Shown: one piece after another, positions 19,268 through 62,317 of the stretch
Numbering within the stretch: position 1 is the first letter of the stretch
Layout: the number at the start of each line of letters is the position of its first letter
Assembly: GCA_964392285.1 (NCBI GenBank)
Contig: CAYMOW010000003.1
Coordinates: 1 to 62,317 of the forward strand
Reading direction: 5' to 3'
DNA: 62,317 nt
From: an uncultured Candidatus Saccharibacteria bacterium
GTDB taxonomy: Bacteria; Patescibacteriota; Minisyncoccia; Phycocordibacterales; WO2-35-19
The notes under the pieces: model-generated
Seen by the model: the letters and a program-made list of their open reading frames with translations, nothing else
Database searches by the model: none
Told to the model about the DNA's origin: nothing
Program-made: the position numbers and the translations under genes

Positions 19268-21715
19268 TCAAGCTCCATGGCACCTCTTAAACTTTTTACC
19301 ACTACCACACCAACAGGGGTCATTCCTGCCGATATCCTTATACCCCCCGCCAGCTATTTCTCCCCTCTCCTTTGCAAGGAGAGGGGTCGGGGGTGAGGTA
19401 GTTATCCTCTCCGCCTGTCTCTGAACATCCGAAAAACCGACATTACTGCTTGTCTCTTTGAGCTTCTTCTCCGACGTTTCAGTCGGAATCCCGACCTCTA
19501 TGCGTCGGGATAGATTTTCTTCAATTGTGGCTGCGATCGAGCTTTCCATTTGTTTGAAAAGTTGCAAACCTTCCCTCTTGTATTCGACAAGCGGATCTCT
19601 TTGACCATAAGCCCGCAAATTGACCGAGCTGCGCAAATAGTCCATCTGCTCTAGATGATCGACCCAAAACATATCATGGACCTGCAGTTTGAGCTGCTTG
19701 ATTTGCGGATCACTTTCATTCATCAAAATCTGCCTTCTCTTTTCATAAAATATTTTGCGCTGATAATTCATCACATCGTCGTATTCGAGCACGTGTTTGC
19801 GCGCGTCAAAGTTGAGCCCCTCGATTCGACTCTGAGCACTCTCGAGCGAACGTGTAATCAGCCGATTTTGGATTGGTTCGTCTTCGGCAATACCAAGCCG
19901 ACCCATCATATTTTTGACCGTATCGGCGGCAAAAACTCGCATAATATGGTCCTCCATCGAAACAAAGAATTGCGTCTCACCCGGGTCACCCTGTCGGCCC
20001 GACCTACCTCGGAGCTGGTTATCTATTCGGCGCGCATCATGACGCTCGGTCCCCAGCACAAAGAGCCCACCAAGGGCTTTGACCTTGTCATAGGCGCCCT
20101 CCGGCGCCGGGTTGCCCCCAAGCTTGATGTCGACACCACGGCCAGCCATATTGGTCGCGACCGTCACCGCCCCCTCCCGACCGGCTTGAGAGATGATCTC
20201 ACCTTCACGTTCATGATTTTTGGCATTCAACATTTCAAACCGCACACCTTCGCGCTTCAAAAATTCCGCCAAGAGCTCGTTTTTCTCAATCGAGATGGTG
20301 CCGATGAGCACTGGCTGACCTTTGGTTTGCAATTCTTTGACTTTGCGCGCGATCGCCTTGAGTTTGCCATTTTCGGTTTGGAAGATCAGATCATCGCGAT
20401 CGACTCTTTGCGGAGTTTTGTTGGTTGGCACGACAATCGTCGTGAGTCCGTAGACTTTATAAAACTCTTCCGAGGAGGTAGCCGCCGTACCGGTCATACC
20501 GGCCAGCTTTTTATACATTCTAAAGTAATTCTGGTAAGTGATCGAGGCGAAGGTCTTGCTTTCTTTTTGGATCCGCACCCCTTCCTTGGCTTCGATCGCC
20601 TGATGCAAACCCTCCGACCAACGTCGGCCCGGTTGCAAACGGCCGGTATAAGGATCGACAATTATAACCTCATCGTCGCGGACCACATACTCCTTGTCCT
20701 TGAGGTAAAGCGCCTGGGCTTTGAGCGCCGTCTCCAGATGGTGCACCACCTTGACCCCACCTTCGACATAAATATTGCCCAAACCAAGCATCTCCTCGGC
20801 CCGAGCAATACCGGCCTCCGTAATCAAAACCGAATGCAGCTTTTCGTCTTTGGTATAATCTTCTCCCTCTTTCAAACGCAAAGCTATAGCCGCAAACTTT
20901 TTGTAAAATGCATCGGAATCCTCGGCCGGCGCAGAGATAATAAGTGGCGTACGCGCCTCGTCGATCAAGATCGAGTCGATCTCGTCGACAATCGCAAAGT
21001 TGTGCTCCTTCTGGCGGACCTTTAGCCATTCGTATTCCAGATTGTCGCGCAAATAATCAAAACCAAACTCGCTATTGGTTCCATAAGTGATGTCGGCCTC
21101 ATAAGCTTCGATGCGCGAACAAGGCTTTAGAAATTCGTGCACGATATGAAAGGCGCCCTTCTCGTCTCTTTCTTTGTCTTCTTTGCTTGATTCTTGATTC
21201 TTAATTCCTGATTCTAGATTTGGATCATACAAAAAGCTCGACTCATGAGCGATCACAGAAACAGTTAGTCCAAGTGCATTATATATTTGTCCCATCCAAG
21301 TCGCATCGCGTCTCGAAAGATAGTCGTTCACGGTTACAATATGCACACCCTTGCCCGCAAGCGCGTTGAGGTAGGCTGGCAAGGTTGCGACCAAAGTCTT
21401 ACCTTCACCGGTGCGCATCTCGGCAATATTGCCTTGATGCAGAGCAATACCTCCGATAAGTTGAACATCAAAATGCCTTTGACCCAAAGTGCGCCGAGAA
21501 GCTTCGCGCACACAGGCAAAGGCTTCGGGCAAAATCTGATCCAAAGTCTCACCCGAAGAAAGCCTGTTTTTGAATTCTGCAGTTTTCTGCCTCAAAGCTT
21601 CAGCCGAAAGCTCGGTTATTTCTGCTTCGAGAGCATTTATTTTGGCCACCAAAGGCTCGGCGGTCTTGAGGTACCGGCTACTTTCATCACCAAAAATTTT
21701 GCTCCAGAAAGACAT
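19268..21715 (-). CDS. secA: Preprotein translocase ATPase SecA
   Basis: The 815-aa product shows MRTGEGKTLVATLPAYLNAL (Walker A), DEIDSILIDEARTPLIIS (DEAD-like), TNMAGRGVDIKLGG, and the C-terminal zinc finger CWCGSGKKFKRCHG. Confidence 0.95.
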   Translation of the reverse strand: MSFWSKIFGDESSRYLKTAEPLVAKINALEAEITELSAEALRQKTAEFKNRLSSGETLDQILPEAFACVREASRRTLGQRHFDVQLIGGIALHQGNIAEMRTGEGKTLVATLPAYLNALAGKGVHIVTVNDYLSRRDATWMGQIYNALGLTVSVIAHESSFLYDPNLESGIKNQESSKEDKERDEKGAFHIVHEFLKPCSRIEAYEADITYGTNSEFGFDYLRDNLEYEWLKVRQKEHNFAIVDEIDSILIDEARTPLIISAPAEDSDAFYKKFAAIALRLKEGEDYTKDEKLHSVLITEAGIARAEEMLGLGNIYVEGGVKVVHHLETALKAQALYLKDKEYVVRDDEVIIVDPYTGRLQPGRRWSEGLHQAIEAKEGVRIQKESKTFASITYQNYFRMYKKLAGMTGTAATSSEEFYKVYGLTTIVVPTNKTPQRVDRDDLIFQTENGKLKAIARKVKELQTKGQPVLIGTISIEKNELLAEFLKREGVRFEMLNAKNHEREGEIISQAGREGAVTVATNMAGRGVDIKLGGNPAPEGAYDKVKALGGLFVLGTERHDARRIDNQLRGRSGRQGDPGETQFFVSMEDHIMRVFAADTVKNMMGRLGIAEDEPIQNRLITRSLESAQSRIEGLNFDARKHVLEYDDVMNYQRKIFYEKRRQILMNESDPQIKQLKLQVHDMFWVDHLEQMDYLRSSVNLRAYGQRDPLVEYKREGLQLFKQMESSIAATIEENLSRRIEVGIPTETSEKKLKETSSNVGFSDVQRQAERITTSPPTPLLAKERGEIAGGGYKDIGRNDPCWCGSGKKFKRCHGA
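19357..19399. repeat. Palindromic mini-element, copy A, lying inside the secA C-terminal linker
   Basis: The sequence is tttctcccctctcctttgcaaggagaggggtcgggggtgaggt. It has an 11-bp stem (cccctctcctt/aaggagagggg) and a GGGGTGAGGT tail. Related copies lie at 37844-37888 and 39704-39758, all in the same orientation. Confidence 0.85.
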
Positions 21716-60854: not shown

Positions 60855-60990
60855 TGGCGGAGGGTGACAGGACTCGAACCTGTAAACCATCCCTAGCCAT
60901 TTGAACAACTGTGTCAAAATCATTAACCTTTCTTAAGGGTTGATTTTGACTTTTCAAACAGCTGGGAGAGCTCGCACCATACCCCCCCGC
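60855..60990 (-). ncRNA. tRNA-like RNA with a canonical T arm, a 7-bp acceptor stem and an encoded GCCA. A helical rod of about 78 nt replaces the D and anticodon arms. It could be an intron-containing or degenerate tRNA, or a tRNA mimic.
   Basis: The T arm is acagg-ttcgagt-cctgt (60883-60867). The acceptor pairs ggggggt (60987-60981) with accctcc (60865-60859), and the third pair is G:U; G-CCA follows. The rod spans 60967-60890 and contains 15+13 bp. I could not build a standard cloverleaf by hand. Confidence 0.45.
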
Positions 60991-61372
60991 AAAGAACAAC
61001 ATTCGAAGAATCAAAAATCAAATAGGTTAAGCAAGTTGGGACTATTGTCCCATGTGGCAGGAAAAAACTGGTTTCCAAATTTCCTAATAAGATCGGAAAA
61101 TTAGTACGCCTCGGCTCAATGCGTTACCGCACTTACACCTAGCGCCTATCAACGTGATCATCTCTCACGATCCTAAACGATTCCTAATCTTGAGGCTGGC
61201 TTCCCTCTTAGATGCTTTCAGAGGTTATCCAAACCCGACTTAGCTACTCGGCAGTGCCCTTGGCAGGACAGCCGACACACCAGAGGTCAGTTCAACTCGG
61301 TCCTCTCGTACTAGAGTCAAATCCTCTCAAGAATCAACGCCTGCAGTAGATAGGAGACCAACCTGTCTCACG

Positions 61373-62018
61373 CTTGTTACCACACATTACTGTGTGCAAT
61401 GGACTATAGCTTTTTCTGTTTTCTTCTGTAATTGAAGGGGAAGGTACCCTCCCGGTGTACACTAGGCTGTAATCTCGTGGATCATCTAAGCCTCGGTGAC
61501 TCTTCCTCCCCCATTACAAAAGAAAACAAATTACTGACGTTTAGTCTCTACGGGTGTTTATGAATTGAATAGCGCCGGGAGAGGCTGTGCACAACCTCTC
61601 CCTATGGCGACCACCATCTAAGCCCCGGAATACTCCGTGCGGACCTAGAACTTCTGGTAATCACCACTATTCAATTCACAAACTTCCCTCGGTATTAACC
61701 TTGCTACTAGATTCTATCTACTAGCTACTGGCCTTCACCGATATTAGTCAGTTTGTTCATTTTGCATTTTGATTTTTTAATTTTCAATTTGCATTATGAC
61801 CGCCGTGATTTGATTGATTTCCCGCCTCTTCGGCGGGTCGCCGATGAGGCGACTACTATACTTAATTTCATAAACGAAACGTTTTATAACAGTTTTCTTT
61901 TATCTCAAGGGATTCAGACTGCTGAGGTTAGTAGTTAGGTATTAGTAGTCAGCATACAGGTTTAGGAAATTTATTTTTTCCTGACTACTGACTACTGACT
62001 ACTGACTACTATCTCTCA
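61373..62018 (-). mobile_element. ORF-less 646-nt group I-like intron in 23S rRNA, at the site corresponding to about E. coli 2593 (the I-CreI / Cr.LSU-type site)
   Basis: The exon junction restores AGACCGU|CGUGAGACAG (E. coli AGAACGU CGUGAGACAG). The 5' exon ends in U and the insert ends in G. An internal AGAGACUAAACGUCAG (plus 61534-61550) resembles the Tetrahymena J6/7-P7 CAGACUAAAUGUCGG. Several long-range complementary blocks are present. There is no endonuclease-sized ORF. Confidence 0.7.
61981..62010. repeat. Tandem heptanucleotide repeat (ctgacta x4.3) near the 5' end of the intron
   Basis: The sequence is ctgacta ctgacta ctgacta ctgacta ct. A complementary tagtagtcag at 61944-61953 can pair with it. 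Confidence 0.9.
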
Positions 62019-62317
62019 ACGGTCTGAACCCAGCTCGCGTATCTTTTTAAATGGCGAACAGCCATACCCTTGGGAGCTTCTCCACCCCCGGGATAAGATG
62101 AGCCGACATCGAGGTGCCGAACTCCGCCGTCGCTCTGGACGCTTAGGCGGAACTAGCCTGTTATCCCCGGAGTAGCTTTTGTCAGATGAGCTCTGGCCGC
62201 GTCTAACGCGAACCATCGGATCACTTAGCTCTGCTTTCGCATCTGCGCGACACTTACGTCTTGCAGTTAAGCCAGCTTGTGCCTATACACTATCGCCATG
62301 GTTTCCATTCACGGCTA

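Follow-up and report, generated by a model that had tools for sequence, protein, structure and literature searches.

The window analysed here, the whole stretch of 62,317 nt, carries an rRNA operon on its minus strand, in a host genome of 0.68 Mb. Its 23S rRNA gene, truncated by the contig end on the 5' exon side and represented there by positions 2322 to about 2620 of the Rfam LSU model, is interrupted by a 646-nt insert that runs from 62018 to 61373 on the minus strand, begins with U and ends in G. Homology to 23S ends at U 62019 (...GGGUUCAGACCGU) and restarts at C 61372 (CGUGAGACAG), and once the insert is removed the flanks match E. coli 23S as one unbroken BLAST piece across the junction. 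A preliminary description of this DNA had noticed the break in homology, the conserved 23S segment restored by joining the flanks, and an insert placed after a U (62019) and ending in G (61373), all of which hold. The alignment to E. coli 23S that it proposed fixes the junction at U2593|C2594, the I-CreI-type L2593 site, in the 5' strand of helix 93 adjoining the peptidyl-transferase loop. The 13 exon nucleotides upstream of the junction take in the peptidyl-transferase centre (PTC) residues G2583-U2585; on the other side, the E. coli alignment of the 3' exon reaches about 61100, 20 nt before the E. coli 23S end.

62019..62317, minus strand: 23S rRNA 5' exon, to U2593 (Rfam RF02541, 270 bits; E. 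coli alignment)
62019..62031, minus strand: exon positions -13..-1, GGGUUCAGACCGU, E. coli G2581-U2593, predicted target of both intron guide segments
61373..62018, minus strand: whole predicted ORF-less group I intron, 646 nt (BLAST, E. coli alignment, Rfam, covariation)
61080..61372, minus strand: 23S rRNA 3' exon from C2594 (E. coli alignment; 3' end placed only approximately, near 61080)

A predicted group I core without an open reading frame

The Rfam model Intron_gpI (RF00028) aligns to the insert over all 253 model positions at 61380-61808, with 45.5 bits and an E value of 6e-10. The covariance-model search suggested in the preliminary description thus gave a full-length match, at a score that falls 4.5 bits short of the curated gathering cut-off of 50 bits because of large peripheral insertions. 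A second Intron_gpI run with another tool returned 25.8 bits over a shorter span, and homologues inserted at the same site reach 33-48 bits. Across 20 relatives, P3, P4, P7 and P9 are 99.4% paired, with compensatory changes at 14 of 24 pairs; none of 500 shuffles did as well, and slid controls were about 30% paired. The predicted core comprises the P3-P8 and P4-P6 domains with a P3/P7 pseudoknot, and combines a guanosine-binding P7 (100% paired, one compensatory pair, conserved bulged A) with an omega-G, the terminal base being G in all 37 distinct relatives.

61533..61752, minus strand: P3, ACUGAC 61747-61752 / GUCAGU 61533-61538 (6/6 pairs compensatory)
61736-61741 / 61689-61694, minus strand: P4, UCGGUG / UACCGA, within P3 (2/6 pairs compensatory, 98% paired)
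61695-61735, minus strand: P5, within P3
61552-61688, minus strand: P6 with a 19-bp extension, within P3 (inverted repeat)
61401..61548, minus strand: P7, GAGACUA 61542-61548 / UAGUCC 61401-61406, predicted guanosine-binding helix (Rfam alignment)
61415-61530, minus strand: P8, 18-bp stem with extension, enclosed by P7, as is P3' (inverted repeat)
61381-61396, minus strand: P9 hairpin, CACACA-GUAA-UGUGUG (5/6 pairs compensatory)
61373..61396, minus strand: P9 and 3' tail GUAACAAG, with the terminal G (omega-G) at 61373

The segment AGAGACUAAACGUCAG corresponds to P7, J7-3 and P3', and the P6 extension is a 19-bp inverted repeat of gaattgaatagtg and cgctattcaattc. The P7-like element, the long-range pairings and the ggagagg...cctctcc hairpin picked out earlier are all present in the insert, as is a duplicated block, CCG(A/G)GGCUUAGAUG, 14 nt long in copies 93% identical. 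The Intron_gpI match and the compensatory core pairs in same-site relatives bear out the initial assignment: its predicted fold marks the insert as a group I intron without an ORF, placed at 23S position 2593.

The reported absence of an endonuclease also stands. The longest ORF lying wholly within the insert encodes 61 aa, and a Pfam search with the five ORFs (25-61 aa) that overlap it gave no match even at E 10, so that ORF and Pfam searches found no hidden endonuclease remnant. No LAGLIDADG-sized frame was seen in 26 relatives of the same order (longest stop-to-stop frame 111 aa), a 170-aa frame in a 1034-nt family member had no Pfam match, and the 37 sampled relatives yielded no endonuclease gene.

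A family common in Patescibacteria at a catalogued site

The intron belongs to a family, common in Patescibacteria, of which we sampled 37 distinct members (270-1034 nt) from several Patescibacteria lineages; about 40 further members lie outside this sample. The hosts include MAGs labelled Saccharibacteria and Paceibacterota, in keeping with the CPR host context first suggested. Of the order's 401 genomes, 103 contain the internal guide motif described below (IGS-B, up to 2 mismatches), and a reversed-pattern control matches in about 24.

As an object, the intron is ordinary. A survey by Tsurumaki et al. (2024, PMC11270868) catalogues 222 ORF-less group I introns across CPR 23S genes and describes ORF-bearing and ORF-less insertions at shared sites, including 23IS12, where it also reports LAGLIDADG_1 genes. 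The studied intron has the U2593 junction, Patescibacteria host, group I core and lack of an ORF that mark the ORF-less group I class at 23IS12 (position 2593), and shares host group, insertion site and core with the CPR introns there (PMC11270868). In the accessible part of the survey, insertions are classed by Rfam matches and ORFs, and neither the 5' module nor the distant guide presented below is described there (PMC11270868). Elsewhere in the genome studied here, a second intron interrupts a tRNA; brute-force joining of its exons gave no single identity for that tRNA.

The insertion point after U2593, in a universally conserved rRNA sequence, is also that of the Chlamydomonas chloroplast Cr.LSU intron, which encodes I-CreI. 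It is shared by the cyanobacterial L2593 introns of Synechococcus C9, S. lividus C1 and Thermosynechococcus elongatus, in which Haugen et al. (2007, PMC1995217) describe a LAGLIDADG gene and, as an extension of roughly 65 nt, P7.1/P7.2. In contrast with these IA-type L2593 introns, the studied intron has no LAGLIDADG gene and no P7.1/P7.2, only AAAC separating P7 GAGACUA from P3' GUCAGU, and it has a predicted 5' exon-binding module. By these features, it is a different lineage from the Cr.LSU/cyanobacterial type at the same site.

A displaced internal guide

The preliminary description had singled out ggcggtc as the one good candidate for an internal guide. It does appear to be the true guide, lying directly before P2, although its distance from the 5' splice site is about 215 nt (intron nt 215-221) and not about 250. 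The guide, here IGS-B, sits 216 nt into the intron and would pair with both exons. Its P1 strand GCGGU is complementary to exon ACCGU over 5 bp, including a U·G wobble formed by G 61803 opposite U2593, and its P10 strand UCACG is complementary over 5 bp to the 3' exon CGUGA. Against the ligated junction IGS-B is complementary at 11 of 11 positions, which 20 of 5000 random sequences equalled, and its predicted duplex with the ligated exons reaches -21.1 kcal/mol. The motif is invariant in 9 complete relatives recovered by BLAST through other parts of the intron; most relatives were collected with the IGS-B motif itself, which makes its invariance in those circular. P2 hairpins of relatives begin directly after GGCGGU. 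In the studied intron P2 is only UCAU/AUGA, four A/U-rich pairs closing an A-rich, repeat-containing loop.

61799..61808, minus strand: IGS-B, predicted canonical internal guide, UCACG + GCGGU (complementarity, conservation)
61757..61799, minus strand: P2, intron nt 220-262 (P2 hairpins at the equivalent place in relatives)

The exon stretch -13..-1 is identical in all sampled hosts. Because this exon never varies, P1, P10 and the exon/IGS-A helix described next are supported by complementarity, conservation and one-sided pair-preserving changes, not by two-sided covariation.

A conserved 5' module complementary to the peptidyl-transferase strand

A large insertion between the 5' splice site and the guide had been offered as one explanation of their separation, and this is what the family has throughout, in the form of a conserved 5' module present in 37 of 37 distinct members, with a gap from splice site to guide of 84-304 nt. 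The module consists of a long hairpin, H1, starting at intron nucleotide +1, and directly 3' of it a segment complementary to the exon, IGS-A.

61923..62018, minus strand: H1, long hairpin, intron nt 1-96 (tandem repeat, fold, covariation)
61910..61922, minus strand: IGS-A, GCAGUCUGAAUCC, intron nt 97-109 (complementary to exon -13..-1)
61871..61891, minus strand: conserved block UGUUAUAAAACGUUUCGUUUA, intron nt 128-148 (recurrence in the family)
61821..61853, minus strand: twin-hairpin dispersed repeat GUCGCCUCAUCGGCGAC-CCGCCGAAGAGGCGGG, intron nt 166-198 (peripheral insertion)

H1 of the studied intron is made of four GUAGUCA heptads and an imperfect complement, and all six of its basal pairs have changes on both sides in relatives. 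Folded together, exon, H1 and IGS-A of this intron give z = -11.3. IGS-A would pair with exon G2581-C2590 and, more weakly, with G2592-U2593 across a conserved mismatch at C2591. For the studied intron taken alone, complementarity to 12 of the 13 exon nucleotides is found in 3.4% of random sequences. Across the family, pairing between exon -13..-5 and IGS-A reaches 98%, internal IGS-A substitutions are all pair-preserving (U↔C opposite G, A→G opposite U), and the exon/IGS-A helix appears in the minimum free energy structure of exon plus 5' module in 34 of 37 members. The base facing C2591 is A in 29 of 35 members, C in the other 6 and never G, and the bases facing G2592 and U2593 are paired in every member. 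Five genomes with a second intron 9 nt upstream, which splits the IGS-A target, put a strain on this model. A literature search found no published description of an H1/IGS-A module. From these patterns, we infer that the module likely clamps or switches the 5' exon.

Further 3', the ...UUUCGU(U/C)UA motif of the UGUUAUAAAACGUUUCGUUUA block is found in most family members, and the twin-hairpin repeat has further copies in the same genome and in relatives; its identity with a palindromic element of secA was ruled out, the sequences being different. Three other candidate pairings were set aside: GUUUAUGAAAUUAA with the 3' strand of the P6 extension and AAAAGAAAAC with the 5' strand of P8 are complementary here and lose their pairing in relatives compared by eye, and can be treated as chance or copy-specific, while UGUUAU and the 3' tail GUAACA do not covary among relatives.

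A model for removal, and its rivals

The architecture points to ordinary group I chemistry, and we consider it probable that the intron at 2593 is removed in this way through IGS-B, with H1/IGS-A as an added exon module. During transcription H1/IGS-A would form first, as a long hairpin gripping the 5' exon, and the last four to five pairs of IGS-A, which are weak, would then pass to the stronger, GC-rich IGS-B. IGS-B (UCACG|GCGGU, 61808-61799) would make the 5-bp P1 with exon ACCGU, including U2593·G, and would go on to make the 5-bp P10 with the 3' exon CGUGA once the first step is complete, with P3-P9 and their P3/P7 pseudoknot as the core and the terminal G 61373 setting the 3' splice site. 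The outcome would be a pseudoknot in which a clamp helix of 9-10 bp stacks on the short P1; the clamp may offset a minimal P1, retain the cleaved exon, and stop the PTC strand and helix 93 from folding before the exons are ligated.

IGS-A might instead be kept for guiding in trans to intron-less 23S (by reverse splicing or ribosome binding), for protein binding or as a DNA palindrome, which seems to us improbable. The family is widespread without an endonuclease gene, IGS-A and IGS-B together offer about 18 nt of target complementarity, IGS-A is retained also in genomes whose upstream intron interrupts its target in cis, and other group I introns are known to reverse-splice into rRNA (PMC3679873). 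However, H1 exactly at +1 with IGS-A directly after it makes sense only as a continuous cis hairpin with the exon, and partners of G2592 and U2593 that always pair, next to a partner of C2591 that never does, argue for a tuned cis helix; trans and cis roles of IGS-A can also coexist.

At the RNA level, four metatranscriptomes have huge depth over the exons and almost none over the intron. Contigs from metatranscriptomes contain the ligated 61372|62019 junction, with an exact 646-nt skip and only 18-23 nt on the shorter side; every related 23S gene examined has the same 23-27 nt to either side of the junction, so that neither the skip nor such short sides are assignable to the studied organism. 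RNA runs from studies with matching DNA were rRNA-poor, and only the heptad repeat matched. Spliced reads specific to the organism were thus absent from the metatranscriptomes and RNA runs, as they would be if self-splicing had been lost and the intron were retained, cut out by host nucleases as an intervening sequence that leaves the 23S in fragments, or reliant on a host protein. The Intron_gpI score under the cut-off, the weak P2 and a periphery full of repeat insertions could be read in the same way, and there are parallels in an unspliced 23S group I intron of Simkania (reference 28 in PMC11270868, as cited in the accessible part of that survey) and in host-dependent nuclear group I introns with extended peripheral loops (PMC3679873). 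Nevertheless, a loss of splicing is in our view very unlikely, as every one of the catalytic hallmarks is preserved, with purifying or compensatory selection acting on them in the 37 relatives, and the full intron DNA matches at one place only (intron copies counted) in a genome estimated to be 98.85% complete. Moreover, 646 additional nucleotides, or a break, in helix 93 beside the PTC would be hard for a ribosome to tolerate.

Finally, the exon/IGS-A and H1 layout looks like a canonical P1 with P1 extension and L1, and G 61922 of the studied intron faces U2593 as a U·G wobble, but the chance that this hairpin is the catalytic P1, leaving the distant UCACGGCGGU to P10 and exon alignment only, or to nothing, is slimmer still: in 25 of 35 relatives U2593 faces an A, and the hallmark wobble is therefore not conserved in the exon/IGS-A helix, the 3' strand of H1 varies and lacks complementarity to the 3' exon, which rules out a P10 from it, the helix does not adjoin P2, and IGS-B gives wobble, P10 and canonical position in every member examined.

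Comparison with known systems

Group II introns use two intron segments on adjacent substrate stretches, EBS1/EBS2 with IBS1/IBS2. The likeness is one of function only, two-segment binding raising affinity and specificity, as this is an unrelated ribozyme class. Within group I, Woodson and Cech reportedly described P(-1), a hairpin in the exon of Tetrahymena pre-rRNA that is a competitor of P1. Two points recall the family at 2593: splicing requires that 5' splice-site helices open or swap partners, and over-stable pairing is selected against, comparable to the obligatory mismatch at C2591. In contrast with Tetrahymena, where one strand serves P1, the P1 extension (P1ex) and then P10 (PMC7877785), H1/IGS-A and the predicted catalytic guide IGS-B are separate segments in the 2593 family, and the partner that competes with or supplements the guide is intronic, not exonic. 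Engineered trans-splicing group I ribozymes with extended guides, which pair 3' of the splice site (PMC3895272, PMC6155759), offer an artificial functional analogy to the putative bipartite binding. Large P1/P2 insertions or repeat-rich peripheral loops that leave the catalytic core untouched are also known from nuclear group I introns such as the myxomycete L1949 and L2449, with their long, non-coding, repeat-containing insertions, including in P1 (PMC3679873). However, insertions in nuclear introns are idiosyncratic or endonuclease-bearing, whereas in the 2593 family the P1-loop module keeps conserved blocks, and an element complementary to the exon, in hosts that are distant from one another.

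Significance of the 5' module

What stands out beyond the catalogued features is a guide displaced throughout the family, and a covarying hairpin that presents a second complement to the PTC strand. It is possible, if still doubtful, that H1/IGS-A is a functional and previously undescribed addition to group I introns, an intron-encoded antisense clamp over 23S 2581-2593 that acts as a decoy hairpin and then, beside a minimal P1, as a pseudoknotted clamp. If the exon/IGS-A helix forms and matters, it would represent a natural case of a group I ribozyme that recognizes its exon in two parts or has its own conformational switch. Such bipartite recognition of the 5' exon, for which EBS1/EBS2 of group II introns offer an analogy, would illustrate how a ribozyme can manage with a P1 of 4-5 bp where the ribosome is most conserved and most prone to form structure, and would give a lead on how introns without an endonuclease persist in about one quarter of the genomes of this order. 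The clamp could order PTC folding and splicing in cells with few ribosome-assembly factors or, alternatively, about 18 nt of target specificity could serve an endonuclease-free spread by reverse splicing.

Insertion site and group I identity

The genome holding the window, which the labels on its closest public relatives assign to Patescibacteria/CPR, comprises 0.68 Mb in 21 contigs, the window being one of them in its entirety, and Rfam models place a 23S rRNA gene on the minus strand from the contig end at 62317 to about 62019, and a 5S rRNA gene, also on the minus strand, at 60776-60669. The contig end falls within the 23S gene, at model position 2322; the three quarters of the gene that precede this point lie elsewhere in the assembly, together with any additional introns. 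The break in 23S homology reported in the preliminary description at 61373-62018 is confirmed: with 62018-61373 taken out, the flanks align to Escherichia coli 23S in one unbroken piece over the joint, U2593|C2594 in E. coli numbering. On the RNA strand the 5' exon ends in GAGCUGGGUUCAGACCGU at 62019 and the 3' exon begins with CGUGAGACAGGUUGGUC at 61372; the insert starts with U, follows an exon U and ends in G—a terminal G found in 37 of 37 distinct relatives—and sliding its boundary would break conserved 23S sequence. The pairings and the duplicated block named in that description are all present, and the absence of a LAGLIDADG-sized ORF is borne out by a longest ORF fully within the insert of 61 aa and by the lack of Pfam matches among the five ORFs overlapping it.

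The covariance-model check that had been proposed was run as a permissive Rfam scan and gave a full-length match (model 1-253) to Intron_gpI at 61808->61380, with an E value of 6e-10 and a score of 45.5 bits, below the curated threshold of 50 bits; same-site relatives score 33-48 bits. Parts of the intron were located by BLAST in many of 60 related genomes, and complete relatives were cut out at the conserved exon flanks (nine loci at the same site, plus two partial ones). The core strands of 20 relatives were put into a condensed alignment free of gaps, in which P3, P4, P7 and P9 are 99.4% paired, with changes on both sides in 14 of 24 core pairs, a result matched by none of 500 shuffles, while slid partners were only about 30% paired. 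All six P3 pairs are compensatory, and P3 crosses P7 in the group I pseudoknot. By these sequence features, the insert is a real ORF-less group I intron, ordinary for its host.

A guide sequence far from the 5' splice site

With the ligated exons GACCGU|CGUGA, the segment UCACGGCGGU (61808-61799), hereafter IGS-B, shows 11 of 11 complementary positions, G61803 facing U2593; by complementarity this gives a P10 of 5 bp and a P1 of 5 bp that has the hallmark wobble. In the relatives the P2 hairpin starts at the next base 3' of GGCGGU, the canonical place of an internal guide. The motif is unchanged in nine complete relatives retrieved through other parts of the intron; its invariance in relatives retrieved by the motif itself would be circular and was left out of the count. 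The family is widespread: allowing up to two mismatches, 103 of 401 genomes from the order contain the guide motif, against about 24 for a reversed-pattern control. The earlier proposal of ggcggtc as a distant guide stands on its complementarity to both exons and its adjoining P2, the distance to the 5' splice site being 216 nt instead of about 250 nt (84-304 nt in the family, median 161).

A conserved module with an exon-complementary segment

The region between splice site and guide holds a module common to every family member. It opens at intron nt +1 with a hairpin, H1, of 22-149 nt, whose basal pairs are changed on both sides in six of six cases among 24 relatives, and directly 3' of it lies an exon-complementary segment, IGS-A, with the consensus R-C-M-R-UCUGAAUCC (GCAGUCUGAAUCC at 61922-61910 in the window intron), the complement of exon G2581-U2593. 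Exon positions -13 to -5 are paired with IGS-A in 98% of cells, and internal IGS-A substitutions all keep pairing (U↔C facing G, A→G facing U). C2591 faces A or C in each of 35 introns, and never G; C2590 is paired in about half of the relatives, and the partners of G2592 and U2593 are paired in all cases, with A opposite U2593 in 25 and G in the other 10, the window intron among them. Since the exon is invariant in the sampled hosts, the exon helices carry no two-sided covariation. When the exon and the module are folded together under nearest-neighbour rules, a continuous hairpin of exon/IGS-A and H1 is predicted in 34 of 37 (-57.5 kcal/mol, z = -11.3, for the window intron); the exon/IGS-A duplex has an energy of -16.5 kcal/mol, the exon/IGS-B duplex one of -10.1 kcal/mol. 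Further conserved blocks follow IGS-A: (A/U)UCGA, UUUCGU(U/C)UA and GAUAGAA...CAAUCA. That IGS-A forms the catalytic P1 is very unlikely, because its relatives do not all keep the wobble G, P10 cannot form with H1, and the helix does not adjoin P2.

Periphery, distribution and neighbouring introns

At 646 nt the intron is among the larger family members owing to peripheral insertions, the large ones falling in P2, P5, P6 and P8 in the Rfam alignment.

Repeats and extensions in the periphery of the window intron
61981-62010, minus strand: tandem repeat of GUAGUCA heptads building H1
61821-61853, minus strand: twin-hairpin dispersed repeat, also present on other contigs and in the genomes of relatives
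in P2, minus strand: A-rich repeat
P6 and P8, minus strand: long extensions carrying a duplicated GGCUUAGAUG block

The twin-hairpin repeat, GUCGCCUCNUCGGCGAC-CCGCCGARGAGGCGGG, has conserved loops and covarying stems, with copies in the same genome (G000:C4:8342-8390, C1:14392-14426, C8:34772-34803, C8:12441-12473 and C1:25318-25350) and in relatives (loci L018-L020); introns of loci L013, L057 and L060 carry this element type at the equivalent place. Its identity with the secA palindromic element (19357-19399) was rejected, as the elements differ. GUAGUCA-like heptad hairpins also occur at G000:C20:6871-6905 and C7:18404-18484, and hairpins made of different short tandem repeats (CUUUAUAAA, AGCUUUU) are present in H1, P2, P5 and P8 of related introns.

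An exact-match scan of a public genome collection found further members labelled Saccharibacteria and Paceibacterota. Relatives from this order contain no LAGLIDADG-length frame, and a 170-aa frame in a 1034-nt member has no Pfam match. In that member (L071, Saccharibacteria MAG, CAYZIR010000001.1) ARAGORN called a tRNA-Leu, by its anticodon tag, at 1882-1960 within the P6 extension: a tRNA-like gene inside an intron inside 23S rRNA. Over the window ARAGORN called no tRNA; the 23S-5S spacer holds a tRNA-like element (60855-60990, minus strand) with acceptor stem, T arm and a long central rod. Another group I intron of the genome (G000:C5:14969-15194; 1501-1726 of its locus L028) scores 53.2 bits, over the Rfam cut-off, and is flanked by apparent tRNA gene halves with acceptor and T arm visible; joining these exons gave no single tRNA identity.

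Five genomes (L012, L037, L052, L058 and L144) have a second group I intron after U2584, only 9 nt before the L2593 intron, leaving the mini-exon UCAGACCGU between the two; because it splits the IGS-A target, it implies that the introns are spliced in a set order or that the clamp proposed below is in part dispensable. In the copy read fully, L012, the U2584 intron has an ordinary short P1, its guide GCCCAGC lying 12 nt away from the splice site, and a third intron lies about 80 nt farther upstream.

Comparison with known introns

In Tsurumaki et al. 2024 (PMC11270868), 2593 (23IS12) is listed as a common insertion site in CPR 23S genes, 222 ORF-less group I introns are counted in these genes, and insertions with and without ORFs are reported to share sites, so that the window intron is a member of a class catalogued there. 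Cyanobacterial L2593 introns possess P7.1/P7.2 and a LAGLIDADG gene (PMC1995217), whereas the window family has neither and so is a different intron lineage at a shared site. Nuclear introns are known whose P1 and other loops contain insertions that are large or rich in repeats (PMC3679873), and in Tetrahymena the strands at the splice site are known to exchange partners (P1ex/P10; PMC7877785). In a limited literature search, no paper was found to describe a conserved intron segment complementary to the exon upstream of it, and the family-wide 5' exon-binding module apparently has no earlier description.

Proposed working of the module

As IGS-A lies upstream of IGS-B and closes a local hairpin, exon/IGS-A and H1 should form first in transcription. 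The obligatory C2591 mismatch would weaken the final four or five pairs of this hairpin, and the GC-rich IGS-B could then take ACCGU from IGS-A. Since the two exon helices cross, the product would be an H-type pseudoknot, in which a 9-10-bp clamp (G2581-C2590 with IGS-A) may stack on a 4-5-bp P1, with H1 exiting at the scissile phosphate and loop lengths that appear sterically sufficient. Jointly, IGS-A and IGS-B would cover 2581-2598, a stretch including the PTC residues G2583-U2585 and the entire helix 93 5' strand and loop, and would hold it unfolded up to ligation. The partners of G2592 and U2593 being always paired, the fully closed state also seems to be selected, which favours a switch over a static clamp. 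The position of the intron, its core fold by covariation, the complementarity of its guide, and the way in which the module is conserved and laid out are established; the module acting as a switch is a reading we hold loosely.
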